Sequence record: OZ335962.1
DNA from: a phage
Length of the DNA stretch: 64,000 nucleotides
Strand: one strand, 5' to 3'
Position 1 is the first letter of the stretch, and every line of letters starts with the position of its first letter. Of this stretch, positions 6,281 through 54,477 are shown piece after piece. Below the pieces are notes generated by a model. That model was not told the origin of the DNA and made no database searches. It was given only the letters and a program-made list of their open reading frames with translations. A program made the position numbers and the translations under genes.

Positions 6281-7240
6281 TCACTTCCACTGCATTTCGC
6301 ATGCTAATTGAATGAAAAGATATGCTAAATGTAATTCAGTATTAGCCGCAATTCCATGATACTGGTTATTTTCACCAACAATTTCATACATACGAATAAT
6401 ACTTTGCGGAGTTACGCGTGTATAGATTTCTTCGGCAAGTTTACCTACGAACCACGAATAATCAGCTGCATATTTTGGTGCTAAAGCTCTGAGCTGTTTA
6501 ACATCTTTATTTTTGAGAGATTCAAGAACATCATCAATAGCACCACGATCGTTAGTAACCAGTGATAAAATACCAGCATCCAAAACACCTTTAGATGAAT
6601 AACTATCGAGCTCACCAATAGTTTTACGAAAATCAGGAAAATTCTTTTTAACTAAAGCTGCTACAACTTTCATATCAGCTATAGCAATTCCTTCATGCTT
6701 ACAGATTTCAGTCAATCGACGAATCATCTGCTTCATCATTTCAATTTTATCTTCATCGGTCGGTTGACCGAACGTAATAACTCGGCAGCGTGACTGAAGC
6801 GGTTTAATAATACCATCAATATTGTTAGCAGTAATAATAATACTACAGTTTGAACTATAAGCTTCCATAAAGGAACGAAGATGCCGCTGAGACTCTGCTA
6901 ACCCTGAACGGTCAAATTCATCAATAACGATTACTTTTTGACGACCATCAAATGAAGCTGCGCTAGCAAAATTAGTCAAAGGACCACGAACGAAATCAAT
7001 TTTACAATCTGACCCATTTACAAACATCATATCAGCATTTACATCATGACACAATGCTTTTGCTACAGTTGTTTTACCTGTTCCTGGAGAAGGAGAATGA
7101 AGAATAATATGTGGAATCTTACCTTTACTTGTAATAGATTTAAAGGTTTCTTTATCAAAGGCGGGAAGAATACATTCATCGATAGTAGATGGACGATATT
7201 TCTGTTCAAGAATGTGTTCTTTTTCATTTACAGTAATCAT
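6281..7240 (-). CDS. 44: clamp loader ATPase subunit
   Basis: Matches recalled T4 gp44 ([22 protein letters not shown]..., Walker A GTGKTT); likely start at ATG 7240 after GAGGAA RBS giving 319 aa, the track ORF starts 5 codons earlier. Confidence 0.93.
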
Positions 7241-7272
7241 AATTTCCTCATTCAAGTTTTAGTGTAAATTAT

Positions 7273-7290
7273 AAAGGGCCGAAGCCCTTT
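7273..7290 (-). terminator. hairpin between genes 45 and 44
   Basis: Palindromic AAAGGGC-CGAA-GCCCTTT; could function on either strand. Confidence 0.5.
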
Positions 7291-7291
7291 A

Positions 7292-7978
7292 TTAAAAATC
7301 GTGGGTAGAATCAGCTTCAAGAGCTACTACATAATTCGCATGTTCACCTTCAAATTTAGCAGCACCTTGTTTACCTTTTGCCCAGAGCAGAAGTTTATAA
7401 TTTCCTGGTTGCATTTTCATATTTGCCATATTGATAATGAAATTAAATGTATTTTCACCATCATAATCACCAAGAGTCAAAGAATATTTAACACGGGTCA
7501 AAGCAGAATCTTCTACTTTGTTAAAACCGTTAATTACGATTTTACCTTCTTTTACTGTGATAGCAATTGTATCAATCTGCAGACCACGAGATACACGCAA
7601 CAGCTGTTGAAGGTCTTCAGCTTTAATTTCGGTAACAACAGATGCTACCGGGAATGGAATTGGTTTATTAGGAGCAACTACTGTACTTGGATCGGCTGCT
7701 GGCCAAAAAATTGTTGAACGAGCATCAGCAATTTTAATATTTCCATCTTCTGACTGGGAAATTTCTGCATCGTCATTAACTAGGGACAGAATACCGAGAA
7801 AACCGTTCAAATCGTAAATTGCTACATCAAAATCAATAGTGTCAGAAATATTTGCTTCTGCATAAGTTGTACCATTAACTGCGCGAGTCATAATAAATTG
7901 ACCAGATTTAAGCATAATACCAGAGTTAATAGTAGCGAAATTTTTAAGCAGAGCAGTAGTATCTTTAGACAGTTTCAT
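7292..7978 (-). CDS. 45: sliding clamp processivity factor
   Basis: 228 aa, matches recalled T4 gp45 sequence. Confidence 0.95.
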   Translation of the reverse strand: MKLSKDTTALLKNFATINSGIMLKSGQFIMTRAVNGTTYAEANISDTIDFDVAIYDLNGFLGILSLVNDDAEISQSEDGNIKIADARSTIFWPAADPSTVVAPNKPIPFPVASVVTEIKAEDLQQLLRVSRGLQIDTIAITVKEGKIVINGFNKVEDSALTRVKYSLTLGDYDGENTFNFIINMANMKMQPGNYKLLLWAKGKQGAAKFEGEHANYVVALEADSTHDF

Positions 7979-8008
7979 GTAATTTCCTTCAATTCAAATG
8001 AGATTTAA

Positions 8009-8033
8009 TTTTATAACTAATTTAATAAAGCAA
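8009..8033 (-). promoter_or_regulatory. possible MotA-dependent middle promoter of gene 45
   Basis: Minus strand TTGCTTTA (MotA box) followed about 11 bp later by TATAAAAT; T4 gene 45 is known to have a middle promoter. Confidence 0.45.
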
Positions 8034-8423
8034 TTAACGATTAAAATCGGCAGCAATTGTTTCCGCAACAATTTGAGCAGCGACAATTAGGCGTTCATCT
8101 GCATTACCACAATAATCATCTTCAAGACGTTCACCGCATGAAGTCATAATAAATTTAGCACCAGCATTTAAAGATTCTGTCGTATGTTTGCGCATTAGTT
8201 CAATCCATTTATTGCTTACTTCACGATCGATAGCTTCATAATACGCATGACGAGCAGGTGCAGATTTAATTTTATTCTGAATAACTTCCATCGCGTTATC
8301 AGAAAGAGACAAAACCCATGCTCGACGAATTTTATTTTGATTTTGTGGATTTGATTCAGAACGCACGTGTTTTGGCTGAATATCTTTTACATCAACAGTA
8401 TAATTCACAGTAATTTTAGTCAT
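8034..8423 (-). CDS. rpbA: RNA polymerase binding protein RpbA
   Basis: 129 aa, position between 45 and 46 as in T4. Confidence 0.75.
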
Positions 8424-8432
8424 AATACACCT

Positions 8433-8621
8433 TTAGTCATAATAATCAGTAACAGTCCAAGCTTCATTTCTGTTGGACATTATTTTCGTATATTCTGCTT
8501 TAAATGCATTCTTAAGCATAGATTCAGTAACTATATGCTCTTCATTAGAAAAATTATTTCTCAGAATATATCGTTTTATTTCAGGAATAGTTAATAGATG
8601 CTGTCCAGTTGAATATTCCAT
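8433..8621 (-). CDS. hypothetical protein (45.2-like)
   Basis: 62-aa ORF in T4 45.2 position. Confidence 0.55.
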   Translation of the reverse strand: MEYSTGQHLLTIPEIKRYILRNNFSNEEHIVTESMLKNAFKAEYTKIMSNRNEAWTVTDYYD

Positions 8622-16442: not shown

Positions 16443-16473
16443 ATCAAATCCTCAAAGGCAATTCATATGTTAA

Positions 16474-16502
16474 TAATACCACAGTTTGAACTTCTTGTAA
16501 AC
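16474..16502 (-). promoter_or_regulatory. early-type sigma70 promoter
   Basis: Minus strand GTTTAC -35, 18-bp spacer, TGGTATTAT. Confidence 0.55.
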
Positions 16503-16564
16503 AACTTTATGAAAATTATTTTAGGGAACGATAAGAAGGGAACGATAGCTTAGAATGGTAATAT

Positions 16565-26849: not shown

Positions 26850-27377
26850 TTATGCGAGTACCGTCTTTAACCGTTCTTCAAACTTCCGAAGAGTATTTTG
26901 GCGTTCAGCTCTTTGCTTTTTGTAAGTTTCAATACGCTCTGAAATGAGAGTGTATCGTTCATTTACTGATTCTTTCATAAAATCAGGAATTTCACGAGAA
27001 GCTTTAATCTCGTCAAATTTATCAATAACAGCTTGCTCTTCAGCAATTAAGTTATCATACATTAAAATATCTTTCTTGATGAACTCAATATCTTCTTGAG
27101 TTACACGAGATAATTTAGATGCTTTATCCTTTTTGTACTGTTCGTTAGTATCACGAGACCAGTGTAATGTACGATTTTTATTCGTATTTTTGTAAATTTC
27201 TACAATACCGATCTCATCAATAATAACGATCCAATTCCAACGGGATTTGTAAATTTGTCCTCCATCAACAGTGATTTCACCTCCGATTGAGATGTCATTA
27301 AAGAACTTGCTTTGTGCCTCAGATTTAAATTTACCATCGTTGTAATTTACCAAGTTGAAAATATCTTTAGCGTTCAT
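26850..27377 (-). CDS. hypothetical protein
   Basis: 175-aa ORF directly downstream of an early-type promoter. Confidence 0.55.
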   Translation of the reverse strand: MNAKDIFNLVNYNDGKFKSEAQSKFFNDISIGGEITVDGGQIYKSRWNWIVIIDEIGIVEIYKNTNKNRTLHWSRDTNEQYKKDKASKLSRVTQEDIEFIKKDILMYDNLIAEEQAVIDKFDEIKASREIPDFMKESVNERYTLISERIETYKKQRAERQNTLRKFEERLKTVLA

Positions 27378-27405
27378 TTTCTGTTCCTCCGTAGTTGATA
27401 GGGTA

Positions 27406-27435
27406 ATAGTACCACAGAGGAACAGTCTTGTAAAC
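27406..27435 (-). promoter_or_regulatory. early-type sigma70 promoter
   Basis: GTTTAC -35, 18 bp, TGGTACTAT; upstream of ORF 26850-27377. Confidence 0.6.
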
Positions 27436-27437
27436 CA

Positions 27438-27752
27438 CTAAAAGAAACTTCTTTCACAATTTTTTCCACTGAACCATGCACTCACTGCTTTCTTAGTCTC
27501 AGGAGCAGTGTTATCCATAAACCATTCAAAGGCAGCCTTTTTATGATTCTGGAGGGCTTCTCGGGCTTTAATCTGCTCACGGTCTATTAACACTAACATA
27601 TGAGCCTTTCTTGTCACCATGGGCTTCTTATGATTTTTTGAATACTCCCAGTCATTTGTCCATCGCATTGTCGTTGCGAACTTAAATACTTCTTCTTTAA
27701 TTTTAGTTTCGTAAATTTCACGAGCCTTTGAGTATAACATCATTACCTCCAT
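27438..27752 (-). CDS. hypothetical protein
   Basis: 104-aa ORF. Confidence 0.45.
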   Translation of the reverse strand: MEVMMLYSKAREIYETKIKEEVFKFATTMRWTNDWEYSKNHKKPMVTRKAHMLVLIDREQIKAREALQNHKKAAFEWFMDNTAPETKKAVSAWFSGKNCERSFF

Positions 27753-28828: not shown

Positions 28829-28846
28829 ATTTGTTTTGATAGGGTA

Positions 28847-28876
28847 ATAGTATCACACTACTACCCTACTGTAAAC
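28847..28876 (-). promoter_or_regulatory. early-type sigma70 promoter
   Basis: GTTTAC -35, 18 bp, TGATACTAT; upstream of the AAA+ ATPase gene. Confidence 0.55.
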
Positions 28877-28879
28877 AAT

Positions 28880-29143
28880 TTATTTTAATGTTTGCCAAAT
28901 TTTTACTGCTTCGCGACGAGATACTTCTACAGCTCCAAGTTCTACGGCTTTTTGGCGTCGGCGAGCATGTAAGTCATAATGTTTAATGCGTTTATCTTGA
29001 AACCAAGAACGTTTCATTCCTATTGCTTCTGCCATTTTATGAAGCTCTTCAATATCTCCATCAGTGAACATATGACAATTTTTAGTTGGATGACCGCGAA
29101 GTTTCCATCCATGATTCATTAAAACATCTACGTAAACTGTCAT
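28880..29143 (-). CDS. hypothetical protein
   Basis: 87-aa ORF, conserved-looking small domain (VYVDVL..GW..RGHP..CHM). Confidence 0.45.
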   Translation of the reverse strand: MTVYVDVLMNHGWKLRGHPTKNCHMFTDGDIEELHKMAEAIGMKRSWFQDKRIKHYDLHARRRQKAVELGAVEVSRREAVKIWQTLK

Positions 29144-29290
29144 TGATTCTGCTCCAAATATGTTTCTATAATTTTCTGAGCGAGATAAACTGCGTTATCT
29201 TCAGTTGCATCTTCTAAGAAATTTTCAAAATAAGCTGAAATTTCTTCTGTATCAATCAACTTTTTTACTTCAATTAACGTAGTTTTCATT
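29141..29290 (-). CDS. small acidic protein (49 aa)
   Basis: Below track cutoff; ATG 29290 directly downstream of an early-type promoter; translated by eye as MKTTLIEVKKLIDTEEISAYFENFLEDATEDNAVYLAQKIIETYLEQNQ. Confidence 0.4.
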
Positions 29291-29323
29291 TTATTCCCCA
29301 AATCCGTATCAGTTGATAGTTGT

Positions 29324-29353
29324 ATAGTACCATAAAGCTTTATGCTTGTAAAC
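29324..29353 (-). promoter_or_regulatory. early-type sigma70 promoter
   Basis: GTTTAC -35, 18 bp, TGGTACTAT; directly downstream of a terminator hairpin. Confidence 0.6.
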
Positions 29354-29361
29354 CGTTTTGT

Positions 29362-29401
29362 GAAAAAATTTTGAAATAAAAAAGGGAGCCCGAAGGCTCC
29401 C
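29362..29401 (-). terminator. intrinsic terminator downstream of the nucleotidyltransferase gene
   Basis: GGGAGCC-UUCG-GGCUCCC hairpin followed by TTTTTTATTT. Confidence 0.7.
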
Positions 29402-40245: not shown

Positions 40246-40776
<531 letters not shown>

Positions 40777-41232
40777 TTAAAAGAGGCTGTTCATTATTCG
40801 GTAAAGTGAAGGACCCATCACATATTGCCACTGAGTACGAGGAATAAGAGCAAAAGCATCCATCTCTGGAATCATAACGCCATCTTTATTTTCAAAATAA
40901 GACTCGCAATGGCAATTTCTAAACATCTCATGCTCTACTGGAATCGTATAATAAAATAACTGTAAGTCTTTATTACTAGAATATTTAAATACACCTAAGT
41001 CTTCTAGAAGGTCTGGATTATAATCGATAAAACCAGTCTCTTCTGAGCATTCTCTTTTTGCAGCTTCCAGTGCATTCAAATCAGAACTTTCTACACGCCC
41101 CTTTGGAATATCCCAGCGATGTGCCATCATTCCAGGTTTACGAGAACCGGTAACTCGTCCCATAAATAAATCTTTATCTTCTGTCATAAAGATAATACCA
41201 GCTGATAATGTTTTCATTTTAATTTCCTGCAT
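40777..41232 (-). CDS. nudE: Nudix hydrolase
   Basis: 151 aa as in T4 NudE; Nudix box GRVESSDLNALEAAKRECSEETG. Confidence 0.85.
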   Translation of the reverse strand: MQEIKMKTLSAGIIFMTEDKDLFMGRVTGSRKPGMMAHRWDIPKGRVESSDLNALEAAKRECSEETGFIDYNPDLLEDLGVFKYSSNKDLQLFYYTIPVEHEMFRNCHCESYFENKDGVMIPEMDAFALIPRTQWQYVMGPSLYRIMNSLF

Positions 41233-41702
41233 TCAGTGATAAAATTATTTAAATTTTGAGCATATTTCTTTTCATCAAAAATCTTTTGTTGTCTGCGCAT
41301 CCGCCATGGCATTTCAATGAACATGTACCATATTCCTGATAATATTGATGCTGTAAAAATATTAACAAGTATAATTAAAAGAATCCAATCTCCCGTTCTG
41401 CCTACTGGACTTTCTCCAAAGAAGCAAAATACAAATGATGTCACAGGAAAACTAATAATATACCACAGAATCATAATCTTATCTGTGAACCAATCAGCGT
41501 TCGTTAATTTAGCGCGACCGTTTCGAATACACACGAATTTATCATCTGTCGCAGTAGATGGCTTAGCTGCTTGATATCCCATTCTAAACTCCCTAATTAA
41601 TCGTTTCTTTGTATCTTCAGAACAGCCGCTCCAGTCAACTCTATCAACTGAAATGCCATCGTCCCCATCATCTAAATCATACCAGCGAGTTTTTAAAATC
41701 AT
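41214..41702 (-). CDS. hypothetical membrane protein (complete copy)
   Basis: 162 aa with C-terminal transmembrane helices; its first 84 codons are exactly duplicated upstream. Confidence 0.6.
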   Translation of the reverse strand: MILKTRWYDLDDGDDGISVDRVDWSGCSEDTKKRLIREFRMGYQAAKPSTATDDKFVCIRNGRAKLTNADWFTDKIMILWYIISFPVTSFVFCFFGESPVGRTGDWILLIILVNIFTASILSGIWYMFIEMPWRMRRQQKIFDEKKYAQNLNNFITECRKLK

Positions 41703-41964
41703 TTAATTTATAATATACCACAGAATCATAATCTTATCTGTGAACCAATCAGCGTTCGTTAATTTAGCGCGACCGTTTCGAATACACACGAATTTATCAT
41801 CTGTCGCAGTAGATGGCTTAGCTGCTTGATATCCCATTCTAAACTCCCTAATTAATCGTTTCTTTGTATCTTCAGAACAGCCGCTCCAGTCAACTCTATC
41901 AACTGAAATGCCATCGTCCCCATCATCTAAATCATACCAGCGAGTTTTTAAAATCATTTAATTT
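41455..41964. repeat. exact 255-bp tandem duplication (2 copies)
   Basis: Copy 1 41455-41709 and copy 2 41710-41964 appear base-for-base identical by direct reading; in frame, creating a truncated gene copy. Confidence 0.85.
41703..41957 (-). CDS. truncated duplicate of the downstream gene (N-terminal 84 aa)
   Basis: Encodes the identical first 83 residues of ORF 41214-41702 then N-stop; product of a 255-bp tandem duplication. Confidence 0.5.
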   Translation of the reverse strand: MILKTRWYDLDDGDDGISVDRVDWSGCSEDTKKRLIREFRMGYQAAKPSTATDDKFVCIRNGRAKLTNADWFTDKIMILWYIIN

Positions 41965-42316
41965 TCCTACAATCACTCACAAACTCTTCCATTGATTCTT
42001 TTTCAATATAAGACATATAGCTATTATATTCCTTTAATTGTATTTTGTAATCCTTTTTTCTTTGCCAATTTATTTTAAAATTATCATAATGAAAATATAA
42101 CATGGTACCAAAGAATGAAAATAATGAAATCGCTATAGTAAAACGAAGTTCACTCCAAACCTCTATTATAATTACTGTGCCGTCGATGTTTAAAATAAAA
42201 CAGTCAATTAACAATCCAATAAGACTACCCGCAAGAGCTGCAAATACTGATACAGCAAGAATTAATAGTGCCTCAGGAAACGAATATTTGACTTTATTTA
42301 GTTTTGGCTTTTGCAT
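41954..42316 (-). CDS. hypothetical membrane protein
   Basis: 120 aa with two transmembrane helices. Confidence 0.5.
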   Translation of the reverse strand: MQKPKLNKVKYSFPEALLILAVSVFAALAGSLIGLLIDCFILNIDGTVIIIEVWSELRFTIAISLFSFFGTMLYFHYDNFKINWQRKKDYKIQLKEYNSYMSYIEKESMEEFVSDCRKIK

Positions 42317-42690
42317 CGTGATTCCTTAACAAATTTCATAATTTCATCAAATTCATACATATCTAGCTTAAGCTGGTGTTCCTTTTTAATCTTTTTACAC
42401 TGAGCTTTCCAATCACGTACACGTTTACGATAATGTCTTCCTTGATACCAGTATCCTACCCAATTTACAGGTACTAATAAAAGCGGAACTACCAATGGAA
42501 GAATTAGTGTTGCTCCAAATATTACACCAGATTCAATATCAGTCATAACGTCTATAACCATTCCAGCAATCACCAAAATCACAAATGATACAGCTACCAC
42601 AGGACCTATTAACACATCAGTAGAAATTAGCTGACGCTTTGGTTCATACTTCACAGGTTTACTTGGAAGGTATAGTGATGGCTTTGACAT
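42298..42690 (-). CDS. hypothetical membrane protein
   Basis: Likely start ATG 42690 with AAGGAA RBS; two transmembrane helices. Confidence 0.5.
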   Translation of the reverse strand: MSKPSLYLPSKPVKYEPKRQLISTDVLIGPVVAVSFVILVIAGMVIDVMTDIESGVIFGATLILPLVVPLLLVPVNWVGYWYQGRHYRKRVRDWKAQCKKIKKEHQLKLDMYEFDEIMKFVKESRCKSQN

Positions 42691-43273
42691 ATTCTCTACA
42701 TTCCTTAACAAATTTTTCTAATAATAAATCACTTTCAAAATTGGGATTTTCTACGAATTTATCAAAAAGATCATCAACAATAGTTAAGATATTCTTTTTA
42801 CTAAGAATACGCTTATTTTCATATTTTGTTTCAGAGTCAACTATAAGAGTAAAGAAATATTTCTTTCCCTGAAATTTTACCGTAGTATCAATATAAAATA
42901 AATTTGATTTTTGTAAATTACGTTTAAACCATGCATCACTTAAACTATAAACGCCAAGATAATCATAATCGTCGTTTAAATAACAAACCGTCCATTCAGG
43001 AGAAATGAAATCAGTAAATTCAACATCAAAATCACACGTCAATGAATGAATTGATTCAATACTGTTAATGAGTATTCCAGGACGTATTAAAGACTTTTTA
43101 CCTCTAGAAAATCTTCCGGAAAGGCTTTCATCAGTTTCATATGAAGACCCCCAATAGTAATTACGTCCTTCTGCCATGCGTTTAAGAGCATTTAGTAATT
43201 GGTCTGGAACATCAACCTGTCTTTGGAACTCTTCAAACATTGAATTGAAATCACTTTGCATTTTCATTTTCAT
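42659..43273 (-). CDS. hypothetical protein
   Basis: 204-aa ORF with GGAG RBS. Confidence 0.55.
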   Translation of the reverse strand: MKMKMQSDFNSMFEEFQRQVDVPDQLLNALKRMAEGRNYYWGSSYETDESLSGRFSRGKKSLIRPGILINSIESIHSLTCDFDVEFTDFISPEWTVCYLNDDYDYLGVYSLSDAWFKRNLQKSNLFYIDTTVKFQGKKYFFTLIVDSETKYENKRILSKKNILTIVDDLFDKFVENPNFESDLLLEKFVKECREYVKAITIPSK

Positions 43274-43292
43274 TCCTATTTACTCCAAGTAT

Positions 43293-43310
43293 AAGGGGCC
43301 GAAGCCCCTT
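43293..43310 (-). terminator. terminator-like hairpin
   Basis: AAGGGGC-CGAA-GCCCCTT between ORFs 43315-43908 and 42659-43273; weak U-tract. Confidence 0.45.
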
Positions 43311-43314
43311 ATCA

Positions 43315-44276: not shown

Positions 44277-44320
44277 TTCATTCTCCAAGTTGTTTTTCTG
44301 TATCAGTAGTTGATAGTTGT

Positions 44321-44350
44321 ATAGTACCATGGAAGAACAGGGATGTAAAC
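44321..44350 (-). promoter_or_regulatory. early-type sigma70 promoter
   Basis: GTTTAC -35, 18 bp, TGGTACTAT; upstream of ORF 44013-44276. Confidence 0.6.
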
Positions 44351-44483
44351 CGTTTTGTGAAAAAATTTTTAAAAAGTTTTATGGAATTCTGGGGCAGGGA
44401 GGGGCAATTAAAAGGTAGGATAATATATTATAAAGGGTATAAACTAAATGATGCCTAGAGAGGCCCGGAAAGGCCTAGATACC

Positions 44484-45743: not shown

Positions 45744-45819
45744 TGGTCGAGGCAGTAGGGATCGAACCTACGACCCAGGACTTAGAAGGTCCTTGCTCTT
45801 CCTTCTGAGCTATGCCTCG
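45744..45819 (-). tRNA. tRNA-Arg (anticodon UCU)
   Basis: 76-nt cloverleaf folded by eye: anticodon loop CTTCTAA, T-loop TTCGATC, CCA encoded. Confidence 0.9.
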
Positions 45820-45823
45820 GATT

Positions 45824-45898
45824 TGGCGGACGTGATAGGATTCGAACCTATAACCAATCGCTTAACAGGCGATCGCTCTGCCATTGAGCTACACATCC
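45824..45898 (-). tRNA. tRNA-Asn (anticodon GUU)
   Basis: 75-nt cloverleaf: acceptor GGATGTG/CACGTCC, anticodon stem ATCGC/GCGAT, loop CTGTTAA, T-loop TTCGAAT, CCA encoded. Confidence 0.8.
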
Positions 45899-45902
45899 AA
45901 AT

Positions 45903-45989
45903 TGGTGGGGAGTGATGGAGTCGAACCACCCGAGTCGCAATGACAATGGATTTACAGTCCACACCGCTACCTCTACGGGATAACTCCCC
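45903..45989 (-). tRNA. tRNA-Tyr (anticodon GUA), class II
   Basis: 87 nt: acceptor GGGGAGT/ACTCCCC, anticodon loop CTGTAAA, long variable arm, T-loop TTCGACT, CCA encoded. Confidence 0.75.
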
Positions 45990-45998
45990 AAATTAATT

Positions 45999-46073
45999 TG
46001 GTGGCCCTGGGTGGAATTGAACCACCATCTGGCGATTATGAGTCGCTTGCTTGAACCTTCCAGCTACAGGGCC
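45999..46073 (-). tRNA. tRNA-Ile (anticodon CAU, AUA-reading type)
   Basis: Matches recalled T4 tRNA-Ile (GGCCCTGTAGCTGGAAGG...CTCATAATCG...). Confidence 0.9.
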
Positions 46074-46074
46074 T

Positions 46075-46150
46075 TGGTGCTGATTGACGGAATCGAACCG
46101 CCGACCTTCTCATTACAAGTGAGTTGCTCTACCTACTGAGCTAAATCAGC
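46075..46150 (-). tRNA. tRNA-Thr (anticodon UGU)
   Basis: Matches recalled T4 tRNA-Thr (GCTGATTTAGCTCAGTAGG...). Confidence 0.92.
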
Positions 46151-46155
46151 AAAAC

Positions 46156-46245
46156 TGGCGGAGGCGATAGGATTTGAACCTATGAGTCGCCGGAGCGACT
46201 GCCGGTTTTCAAGACCGGTGCATTAAACCACTCTGCCACGCCTCC
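46156..46245 (-). tRNA. tRNA-Ser (anticodon UGA), class II
   Basis: 90 nt with long variable arm; anticodon loop CTTGAAA. Confidence 0.88.
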
Positions 46246-46247
46246 AG

Positions 46248-46321
46248 TCTCCATACAAGGATTTGAACCTTGGACCTCCTGATCCCAAATCAGGCGCTCT
46301 ACCAAACTGAGCTACACGGAG
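46248..46321 (-). tRNA. tRNA-Pro (anticodon UGG)
   Basis: Matches recalled T4 tRNA-Pro; anticodon loop TTTGGGA; 3' CCA not encoded. Confidence 0.88.
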
Positions 46322-46331
46322 TAAATTAAAT

Positions 46332-46405
<74 letters not shown>

Positions 46406-46410
46406 AAATT

Positions 46411-46497
46411 TGGTGCGAGAAGTGGGACTCGAACCCACAAGGAAATCATTCCGCAGCATTTTAAGTGCTGTGCCTTTACCAATTTGACCATTCTCGC
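46411..46497 (-). tRNA. tRNA-Leu (anticodon UAA), class II
   Basis: Matches recalled T4 tRNA-Leu (GCGAGAATGGTCAAATTGG...). Confidence 0.92.
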
Positions 46498-46498
46498 G

Positions 46499-46571
46499 CT
46501 GGGAATAAAGGACTCGAACCTTTGCATCCTGGAATCAAAATCCAGTGCCTTACCAACTTGGCTAATTCCCA
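46499..46571 (-). tRNA. tRNA-Gln (anticodon UUG)
   Basis: Cloverleaf with anticodon loop TTTTGAT; abuts tRNA-Leu as a dimeric precursor; CCA not fully encoded. Confidence 0.88.
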
Positions 46572-48053: not shown

Positions 48054-48081
48054 TTTATTCTCCTCAGTAGTTGATAGGGTA

Positions 48082-48111
48082 ATAGTATCACTACCCCATC
48101 TAAAAGTAAAT
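48082..48111 (-). promoter_or_regulatory. early-type promoter (weaker -35 ATTTAC)
   Basis: ATTTAC, 18 bp, TGATACTAT; upstream of the 61-aa membrane ORF. Confidence 0.45.
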
Positions 48112-48345
48112 TTATTTTTTACGAAAAATTGATTTATTTTCTGCTGCCCATTTTTCAATAACTGCAGCAGGACCAGTAACAACAATTTTATCACCGTAAT
48201 CTTCTGCGGCGAGTTGACCGAAATTATCTAATGCATCACGAAGAACTCCATGAGGCATTTCACCCATTTTATCTTTCTTGCCGGTGTAAATAAACTCAAC
48301 TTTTACATCAGAAGATTCAGCGATAAATTCTTGATAAGTTTTCAT
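48112..48345 (-). CDS. internal protein (CTS-bearing), ipI-locus gene A
   Basis: About 77 aa from MKTYQEFIAESS (CTS consensus); own early-type promoter upstream; position next to 57B as T4 ipI. Confidence 0.65.
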   Translation of the reverse strand: MKTYQEFIAESSDVKVEFIYTGKKDKMGEMPHGVLRDALDNFGQLAAEDYGDKIVVTGPAAVIEKWAAENKSIFRKK

Positions 48346-48382
48346 TTTAGTTTCCATTCGATTGTTTTGTTTTGATAGGGTA

Positions 48383-48412
48383 ATAGTATCACAACTAAAA
48401 CCGTATGTAAAC
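48383..48412 (-). promoter_or_regulatory. early-type sigma70 promoter of ip gene A
   Basis: GTTTAC -35, 18 bp, TGATACTAT. Confidence 0.6.
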
Positions 48413-48424
48413 AACTTTGTGAAA

Positions 48425-48682
48425 TTATTTTAAATCTTCTAATCGTTTCTTCATCTTAGAACCATTTTTAGCAATTTCTCCTGCATCGGAGCATAATGCT
48501 AAAAGTGCTTTAACTTTCGTTTGGTCTCCTTTAAAAGATGAAGGATCTACTGCAGCAGCAAGTTCTTTAATACGAGAGAAAAGACGCTCAGCTTCAGCTA
48601 AAGCCATTCCAAGCTTTACTTCCATACCGTGGGAAGATTCAGTGATAGTAGTTTTTGCAGCAAACTCTTTGAAAGTTTTCAT
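48425..48682 (-). CDS. internal-protein-like (CTS-like), ipI-locus gene B
   Basis: 85 aa beginning MKTFKEFAAKT; AGGAAA RBS; own early-type promoter upstream. Confidence 0.6.
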   Translation of the reverse strand: MKTFKEFAAKTTITESSHGMEVKLGMALAEAERLFSRIKELAAAVDPSSFKGDQTKVKALLALCSDAGEIAKNGSKMKKRLEDLK

Positions 48683-48712
48683 TTTATTTTCCTAATTAAT
48701 TTTGATGAGGTA

Positions 48713-48742
48713 ATAGTATCACTACCTCATCAGCATGTAAAC
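48713..48742 (-). promoter_or_regulatory. early-type sigma70 promoter of ip gene B
   Basis: GTTTAC -35, 18 bp, TGATACTAT; -10 embedded in inverted repeat GATGAGG...CCTCATC. Confidence 0.6.
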
Positions 48743-48754
48743 AACTTTGTGAAA

Positions 48755-49439
<685 letters not shown>

Positions 49440-52175: not shown

Positions 52176-52766
52176 ATGCTCTTTACATTTTTTGATCCGA
52201 TTGAATATGCGGCCAAAACGGTGAATAAAAACGCGCCGACTATTCCTATGACAGATATTTTTAGAAACTATAAAGACTATTTCAAACGTGCTCTTGCAGG
52301 ATACCGCTTACGCACTTATTATATTAAAGGTTCACCACGTCCGGAAGAATTAGCAAATGCTATATATGGAAATCCGCAGTTGTATTGGGTTTTATTGATG
52401 TGTAATGATAATTATGATCCGTATTATGGATGGATTACTTCGCAAGAAGCTGCTTATCAAGCATCTATACAAAAATACAAAAACGTAGGTGGAGACCAAA
52501 TAGTATATCATGTGAATGAGAACGGTGAAAAATTTTATAATTTAATATCATACGATGATAATCCATATGTTTGGTATGACAAAGGCGATAAAGCTAGAAA
52601 ATATCCTCAATATGAAGGAGCACTTGCTGCGGTCGATACGTATGAAGCTGCTGTTCTTGAAAATGAAAAACTTCGTCAAATAAAAATAATAGCAAAATCA
52701 GACATCAATTCATTTATGAACGACCTTATACGTATAATGGAGAAATCTTATGGAAATGATAAGTAA
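52176..52766 (+). CDS. 53: baseplate wedge subunit
   Basis: 196 aa as in T4 gp53; TATAAATA late promoter about 30 bp upstream. Confidence 0.88.
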   Translation: MLFTFFDPIEYAAKTVNKNAPTIPMTDIFRNYKDYFKRALAGYRLRTYYIKGSPRPEELANAIYGNPQLYWVLLMCNDNYDPYYGWITSQEAAYQASIQKYKNVGGDQIVYHVNENGEKFYNLISYDDNPYVWYDKGDKARKYPQYEGALAAVDTYEAAVLENEKLRQIKIIAKSDINSFMNDLIRIMEKSYGNDK

Positions 52767-54477
52767 TAACCTTAATTGGTTTGTTGGTGTTGTTGAAGAT
52801 AGAATGGACCCATTAAAATTAGGTCGTGTTCGTGTTCGTGTAGTTGGTCTGCATCCACCTCAAAGAGCACAAGGCGACGTAATGGGTATTCCAACTGATA
52901 AATTACCATGGATGTCAGTTATTCAACCTATAACTTCTGCAGCAATGTCTGGAATTGGAGGCTCCGTTACTGGTCCGGTAGAAGGAACTAGAGTCTATGG
53001 TCATTTTTTAGACAAATGGAAAACTAACGGAATTGTCCTTGGCACGTATGGTGGAATAGTTCGCGAAAAACCTAATAGACTTGAAGGATTTTCTGATCCG
53101 ACTGGACAGTATCCTAGACGTCTAGGAAATGATACTAACGTATTAAACCAAGGCGGAGAAGTAGGATATGATTCGTCTTCTAATATTATCCAAGATAGCA
53201 ATCTAGACACTGCGATAAATCCTGATGATAGACCGCTATCAGAAATTCCAACTGATGATAATCCAAATATGTCAATGGCTGAAATGCTTCGCCGCGATGA
53301 AGGATTAAGACTAAAAGTTTATTGGGATACTGAAGGATATCCGACAATTGGTATTGGTCATCTTATCATGAAGCAGCCAGTGCGTGATATGACCCAAATT
53401 AATAAAGTTTTATCAAAACAAGTTGGTCGTGAAATTACCGGAAATCCAGGTTCTATTACAATGGAAGAATCGGTAACTTTATTTGAACGCGATTTGGCTG
53501 ATATGCAACGTGACATTAAATCACATTCTAAAGTTGGCCCAGTTTGGCAAGCAGTTAATCGTTCTCGTCAAATGGCATTAGAAAATATGGCATTTCAGAT
53601 GGGCGTTGGCGGTGTAGCTAAATTTAACACAATGTTAACTGCTATGTTAGCCGGAGATTGGGAAAAGGCATATAAAGCTGGTCGTGATTCATTGTGGTAT
53701 CAACAAACAAAAGGCCGTGCATCTCGTGTTACCATGATTATTCTTACAGGTAATTTGGAATCATACGGTATTGAAGTGAAAACACCGTCTAGGTCTTTGT
53801 CAGCAATGGCTGCTACTGTAGCAAAGTCTTCTGATCCAGCTGACCCTCCTATTCCGAATGATTCGAGAATTTTATTTAAAGAACCTGTTTCTTCATATAA
53901 AGGTGAATATCCGTATGTTCATACAATGGAAACTGAAAGCGGTCATATTCAGGAATTTGATGATACCCCTGGGCAAGAACGATACAGATTAGTTCATCCG
54001 ACTGGAACATATGAGGAAGTATCACCCTCAGGAAGAAGAACAAGAAAAACTGTTGATAATTTGTATGATATAACAAATGCTGATGGTAATTTTTTGGTAG
54101 CCGGTGATAAAAAGACTAACGTCGGTGGGTCAGAAATTTATTACAACATGGATAATCGTCTCCACCAAATAGATGGAAGCAATACAATATTTGTACGTGG
54201 CGATGAAACTAAGACGGTTGAAGGTAATGGAACTATCCTAGTCAAAGGTAATGTTACTATTGTAGTTGAAGGTAATGCTGACATTACAGTTAAAGGAGAT
54301 GCTACCACTTTAGTTGAAGGAAATCAGACTAATACAGTAAATGGAAATCTTTCTTGGAAAGTTGCTGGTACAGTTGATTGGGACGTTGGTGGTGATTGGA
54401 CAGAAAAAATGGCATCTATGAGTTCTATTTCATCTGGTCAATACACAATTGATGGATCGAGGATTGACATTGGCTAA
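52750..54477 (+). CDS. 5: baseplate hub subunit and tail lysozyme
   Basis: 575 aa as in T4 gp5; N-terminal OB-fold, central lysozyme domain (MAEMLRRDEGLRLKVYWDTEGYPTIGIGH), C-terminal VxGxxxxx beta-helix repeats. Confidence 0.96.
   Translation: MEMISNNLNWFVGVVEDRMDPLKLGRVRVRVVGLHPPQRAQGDVMGIPTDKLPWMSVIQPITSAAMSGIGGSVTGPVEGTRVYGHFLDKWKTNGIVLGTYGGIVREKPNRLEGFSDPTGQYPRRLGNDTNVLNQGGEVGYDSSSNIIQDSNLDTAINPDDRPLSEIPTDDNPNMSMAEMLRRDEGLRLKVYWDTEGYPTIGIGHLIMKQPVRDMTQINKVLSKQVGREITGNPGSITMEESVTLFERDLADMQRDIKSHSKVGPVWQAVNRSRQMALENMAFQMGVGGVAKFNTMLTAMLAGDWEKAYKAGRDSLWYQQTKGRASRVTMIILTGNLESYGIEVKTPSRSLSAMAATVAKSSDPADPPIPNDSRILFKEPVSSYKGEYPYVHTMETESGHIQEFDDTPGQERYRLVHPTGTYEEVSPSGRRTRKTVDNLYDITNADGNFLVAGDKKTNVGGSEIYYNMDNRLHQIDGSNTIFVRGDETKTVEGNGTILVKGNVTIVVEGNADITVKGDATTLVEGNQTNTVNGNLSWKVAGTVDWDVGGDWTEKMASMSSISSGQYTIDGSRIDIG

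Follow-up and report, generated by a model that had tools for sequence, protein, structure and literature searches.

A perfect 255-bp tandem repeat at the e.2 locus of a T4-like phage sequence is probably an artefact of assembly

The e.2 locus of the Tequatrovirus sequence analysed here carries a perfect head-to-tail repeat of 255 bp, which is probably an artefact of assembly or circularisation, absent from the genome of the phage itself. The window, as the term is used here, is the whole stretch of phage DNA that was analysed (64,000 nucleotides). By direct string comparison, positions 41455-41709 and 41710-41964 are identical at 255 of 255 bases, with no spacer between them; the initial annotation had described the two adjacent units as base-for-base identical, and the recomputation upholds that description. 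The run over which each base equals the base 255 positions further on is exactly 255 nt long (41455..41709), and the bases flanking both of its ends mismatch. The corresponding TRF result was a period of 255 with 2.0 copies, 100% matches, 0 indels and a score of 1020. The window contains 0 ambiguous bases, and the repeat is the only long tandem repeat within its 64 kb, the one other tandem signal being a 24-nt periodicity at 54221-54324.

The genes of the locus and the two repeat units are listed below, with gene names taken from annotated relatives and from T4 itself.

41954..42316, minus strand: e.3, 120 aa; the upstream neighbour; its TGA stop and the start codon of the first e.2 copy overlap as ATGA
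41965..41968, minus strand: AGGA, the Shine-Dalgarno-like motif of e.2, just outside the repeat (read from the minus-strand sequence)
41703..41957, minus strand: truncated e.2, an 84-aa ORF (e.2 residues 1-83, Asn, stop)
41214..41702, minus strand: intact e.2, 162 aa, of the T4 Y06M family (PF26896/phrog_2203)
40777..41217, minus strand: nudE, 146 aa, Nudix hydrolase; the downstream neighbour, whose ATG overlaps the e.2 stop (ATGA)
40246-40740, minus strand: lysozyme gene e
41455..41709: repeat unit 1, 255 nt, containing on the minus strand 7 nt upstream of the e.2 ATG and the first 248 nt of intact e.2; exactly identical to unit 2
41710..41964: repeat unit 2, 255 nt, identical to unit 1, with the junction between 41709 and 41710

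All of these genes are read from the minus strand, in the order e.3, 84-aa ORF, intact e.2, nudE and e. In this direction of transcription e.2 is located upstream of nudE, and not downstream of it, as the initial annotation had it. The rest of the anatomy given there was borne out: the repeat length (255) is in frame, and a truncated ORF of 83 residues plus Asn and a stop is followed by the complete 162-aa gene. Each unit carries the sequence AAATTAA as the 7 nt upstream of the e.2 ATG, and the sequence across the junction is TTTAATTT / ATAATATACC, also written ...AAAATCATTTAATTT / ATAATATACCACAG... The upper breakpoint falls directly after AGGA (41968-41965), between this motif and the ATG, so that the truncated copy retains its native AGGA and still overlaps e.3 by ATGA. 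Since AGGA itself is situated outside the repeat, it serves the truncated copy only. Intact e.2 is preceded by ...TGGTATATTATAAATTAA, in which there is no Shine-Dalgarno-like motif, and its ATG abuts the TAA stop of the 84-aa ORF (41705-41703). The lower breakpoint is in codon 83, within the first hydrophobic (predicted transmembrane) helix, and the 84-aa product ends within that same predicted helix of e.2. The breakpoints respect neither domain nor signal boundaries, and their position is arbitrary. A scan for promoters and terminators around the locus yielded nothing above the shuffled expectation that bears on the repeat.

The e.2 protein is a member of a small family that is confined to T4-like phages. 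It matches phrog_2203 over residues 1-160 (E=2.3e-77), and the homologue search returned 51 clusters, each with at least 79% identity and each assigned to PF26896 "Phage_T4_Y06M"; the assignment of e.2 itself to PF26896 derives from precomputed annotation. The window e.2 and the T4 e.2 region share 92% nucleotide identity. The placement of the gene is conserved in relatives, where e.3 and nudE flank it and start and stop codons overlap. The protein begins with about 75 hydrophilic residues, continues with two predicted transmembrane helices (residues ~76-96 and ~104-128) and ends in a basic tail. In the T4 reference e.2 is annotated as 102 aa, versus the 162-aa form found in most relatives, and other phages have versions of 122 aa, 95+63 aa and 39+122 aa; such alleles suggest that e.2 tolerates disruption in nature. 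Like the arrangement in the window, these disrupted Tequatrovirus alleles yield N-terminal e.2 fragments; they differ in that they result from frameshifts in a single gene copy, whereas here an intact copy persists beside the fragment.

Compared with window positions 41214-41702, the fetched T4 locus (NC_000866, 1992-2461) shows a 1-nt deletion, followed about 90 nt later by a 1-nt insertion. The C-terminal 36 residues of T4 e.2 are back in frame but unannotated, an arrangement that corresponds to phrog_35263 plus phrog_35580. Either e.2 has truly become a pseudogene in T4, or the frameshifts are old sequencing errors of the reference. The genes e.2, e.3, e.4 and e.5 (41214-43273) encode four consecutive small proteins with a similar tail, F(I/V)x(E/D)(C/S)R(K/C/E), examples being FITECRKLK, FVSDCRKIK, FVKESRCKSQN and FVKECREYVK, and three of the four (e.2, e.3 and e.4) have hydrophobic helices. 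Pairwise BLAST among the e.x proteins gives weak support, with a best E=0.012 against a database of 5 sequences; e.2-e.5 may constitute an old paralogous array. In the short gap between e.6 and e.5 there is a GC-rich hairpin (43291-43312; ATAAGGGGCCGAAGCCCCTTAT), which is terminator-like on the plus strand, the surrounding genes being on the minus strand.

The closest match to the window is Yersinia phage PYps32T (97.9% over 24 kb). When one unit is deleted, region 41000-42500 aligns without gaps (1246 nt) with PYps32T, vB_SsoM_113 and BW-1. Relative to these three nearest genomes, 11 window-specific substitutions occur inside the unit, each of them necessarily in both copies. The initial annotation had raised the single-copy state of related T-even genomes as a point of comparison, and a single copy is what they contain: the unit occurs once in 441 of 441 matching phage records, and local BLAST against 24 fetched loci detected 1 copy in every one of them. 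Included among the 24 are 20 independent contigs (from Logan, ENA and NCBI) that carry the exact e.3 or nudE of the window, each with one e.2 locus. A query spanning the junction matched 442 records, and all the best-ranked ones match as two pieces that represent the two ends of one 255-nt unit. Among the 24 loci the closest allele of the unit is 96.9% identical (8 mismatches in 255), versus 0 differences between the copies in the window. An old paralogous duplication was ruled out on this comparison (0 differences between copies versus at least 8 to the nearest allele), as was a chance origin, 255 identical nucleotides being impossible by chance.

The exact junction pattern had no match in IMG/VR, the JGI metagenomes or the GTDB genomes, and a unit-internal 41-mer with window-specific SNPs had none in the same viral, genome and metagenome contig collections. 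The exact 84-aa product is absent from an index of 153 billion gene positions, and the exact 162-aa e.2 product likewise has no exact match in the gene index; consequently, the phage's own reads appear to be unrepresented in the Logan, ENA and NCBI assemblies. A literature search found no described tandem duplication of e.2 or in a Tequatrovirus, and no 255-bp duplication. Because the copies are identical and the arrangement is absent from relatives, the duplication is confined to this sequence and much more recent than any divergence that has been sampled.

The differences between the window and its three nearest genomes are unevenly placed: 29 of the 38 fall within 194 nt (41373-41566), and the flanks are nearly identical. 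This patch of e.2, which straddles the lower repeat breakpoint, looks like a small mosaic recombination patch in the alignment. No database allele was found that matches it better than about 96-97%.

A repeat of this form could be produced without any event in the phage. T4-type genomes are circularly permuted, and a de Bruijn graph assembler would close such a genome into a cycle. Once the cycle is written out as a linear contig, its last k bases would repeat the first k. If the contig were then re-oriented (opened at a new origin and re-joined, or read as circular) without the trimming of one copy, the two k-long ends would come to lie adjacent to one another, and a stretch of exactly k bases would appear twice in perfect tandem at an arbitrary site, with k = 255 in the present case. 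The true genome would then carry one e.2, as in every relative. We infer the assembler and its k from the number 255 alone, and the re-orientation step would likewise be part of this reconstruction.

Two features of the repeat point away from biology, namely a junction without microhomology and a length of exactly 255. At the junction the microhomology amounts to 0 nt, and no meaningful similarity was found between the sequences around the two breakpoints. The length is an odd number and equals the largest k that MEGAHIT accepts. The default values of the commonest phage assemblers are 127 (SPAdes) and 141 (MEGAHIT), so that 255 is a non-default k. The repeat thus resembles the k-mer end overlap of circular de Bruijn contigs (127 bp for SPAdes, the final k for MEGAHIT) in being a perfect two-copy repeat, of an odd length that is the legal maximum k, at an arbitrary position, without microhomology and absent from all relatives; it differs in that 255 is an unusual choice of k.

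Published assemblies provide precedents for both the value and the process. One study of phage metagenomes ran MEGAHIT with '--k-max 255' (PMC7691681), and a 'maximum k-mer size = 255' was used in another (bioRxiv 10.1101/2025.05.16.654412). In circular contigs from MEGAHIT the end overlap equals the final k, e.g., 141 bp on k141 contigs (bioRxiv 10.1101/2023.06.07.544120), and phage contigs from SPAdes have shown artificial overlaps of 127 bp at their ends (PMC5923482). In one phage genome assembled from short reads, a 79-bp internal repeat proved to be an artefact when hybrid assembly and Sanger sequencing were applied (PMC10438801). By rough estimate, the chance that a real duplication would be exactly 255 nt is well under 1%, and the chance that an untrimmed overlap would have this value is perhaps 1-2%. 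Taken together, the length and the missing microhomology would favour the artefact by about an order of magnitude, again as a rough figure drawn from the sequence. On the other side, identical copies are also expected from a very recent real event, and an arrangement that keeps an intact e.2, with its ATG directly after a stop codon, would be viable. The absence of the junction from relatives is expected under the artefact and the real readings alike.

The initial annotation had offered a recent duplication, a selected amplification and an assembly error without ranking them; the evidence favours the last, and the selected amplification finds no support. That the isolate contains a genuine, very recent and essentially neutral tandem duplication appears unlikely. 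The origin of such a duplication would be illegitimate recombination or replication slippage, followed by fixation through plaque purification. It would have added an 84-aa N-terminal e.2 fragment made from the native start, with termination-reinitiation at TAA-ATG as the sole source of full-length e.2. In favour of a real event, T4 is well known to form tandem duplications, and the two copies, though 8 of their 255 positions differ from the nearest known allele, are identical to each other, which means that any such event would be very young. The arrangement would be viable because intact e.2 is retained, the stop of the fragment abutting its ATG, and natural disruption of the gene is tolerated (102 aa in T4; 122, 95+63 and 39+122 aa elsewhere). 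Nevertheless, spontaneous deletions and duplications in T4 typically form at short repeats, and here the junction has 0 nt of microhomology; the length coincides exactly with a maximal assembler k; and the junction is absent from the 441 related records, the public contigs and the gene calls. Moreover, a perfect direct repeat of 255 bp would be expected to be lost quickly through the very active homologous recombination of T4. The classical spontaneous duplications and amplifications of T4, such as the rII duplications and the Hp17 amplification of genes 17-18, are of kilobase scale, often formed at short partial homologies and recovered under selection. The present repeat is likewise a head-to-tail direct repeat in a non-essential T-even region and would be recombinationally unstable, but it measures 255 bp and has neither junction homology nor a known selection.

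A partial duplication maintained by selection seems highly improbable. Here the benefit would come from a soluble N-terminal part of e.2 separate from its membrane anchor, or from a lowered level of full-length e.2, under pressures such as host defence or host range. By copying the first 248 nt of e.2 together with 7 upstream bases, the phage would gain in a single step an N-terminal-only form of e.2, a state to which T4 has come through frameshifts. It is indeed the truncated ORF that has the native AGGA and is coupled to e.3 through ATGA, whereas the full copy loses AGGA, and N-terminal-only forms of e.2 exist in nature (e.g., the 102-aa form of T4, phrog_35263). Against this, there are exactly 2.0 copies and no amplified array, the 84-aa product ends inside a transmembrane helix, e.2 is uncharacterised with no benefit known, and a similar event occurs in none of the other 441 phage records; all the points that favour the artefact apply in this case as well. 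Were the duplication real, under selection or otherwise, we would predict normal expression of the 84-aa fragment and reduced, reinitiation-dependent production of full-length e.2.

Several other features of the window and of related sequences were recorded. A dispersed family of repeats of about 70-90 nt has the pattern GTTGATAG.GTAATAGTA.CAC...TGTAAAC... and occurs at the following positions.

2383-2481, 16460-16530, 27365-27463, 28834-28904, 29283-29375: dispersed repeats
44280-44378, 48069-48139, 48342-48440, 48700-48770: dispersed repeats, continued

On the minus strand these repeats resemble in sequence the extended T4 early-promoter consensus, as would be expected in a T-even genome. 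Positions 45744-46571 (minus strand) contain 10 tRNA genes (Arg, Asn, Tyr, Met, Thr, Ser, Pro, Gly, Leu and Gln). T4 has 8 tRNA genes, and the phage therefore has extra tRNAs of the Asn, Tyr and Met types. The 24-nt (8-codon) periodicity at 54221-54324 is degenerate and falls within a 575-aa ORF (52750-54477, plus strand). In relatives, the 24-kb stretch compared includes an annotated gene for a baseplate hub/tail lysozyme (gp5-like); the ORF is presumably this gp5-like gene, and the C-terminal beta-helix of gp5 has 8-residue repeats. Outside the window, a T4-like e/nudE/e.2 block adjoins bacterial LysE and LysR-type genes at 6949-8441 of scaffold_3 (346,710 bp) of ENA ERZ28660204; this 347-kb metagenome scaffold is probably chimeric.

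If the repeat is an artefact, as is most likely, the duplication is no real feature of the phage and matters for curation only: 255 bp and one spurious 84-aa ORF should be removed from the record. A useful check follows, in that an exact tandem repeat whose length equals the k of an assembler should be treated as suspect. Under the neutral reading, a dispensable accessory gene would have undergone a tandem duplication that is young and otherwise ordinary, an event of a known kind. A real duplication, while still no new kind of system, would show such an event in a T-even accessory gene at a very early stage, and would be of modest interest for the evolution of the hypervariable e.x block.
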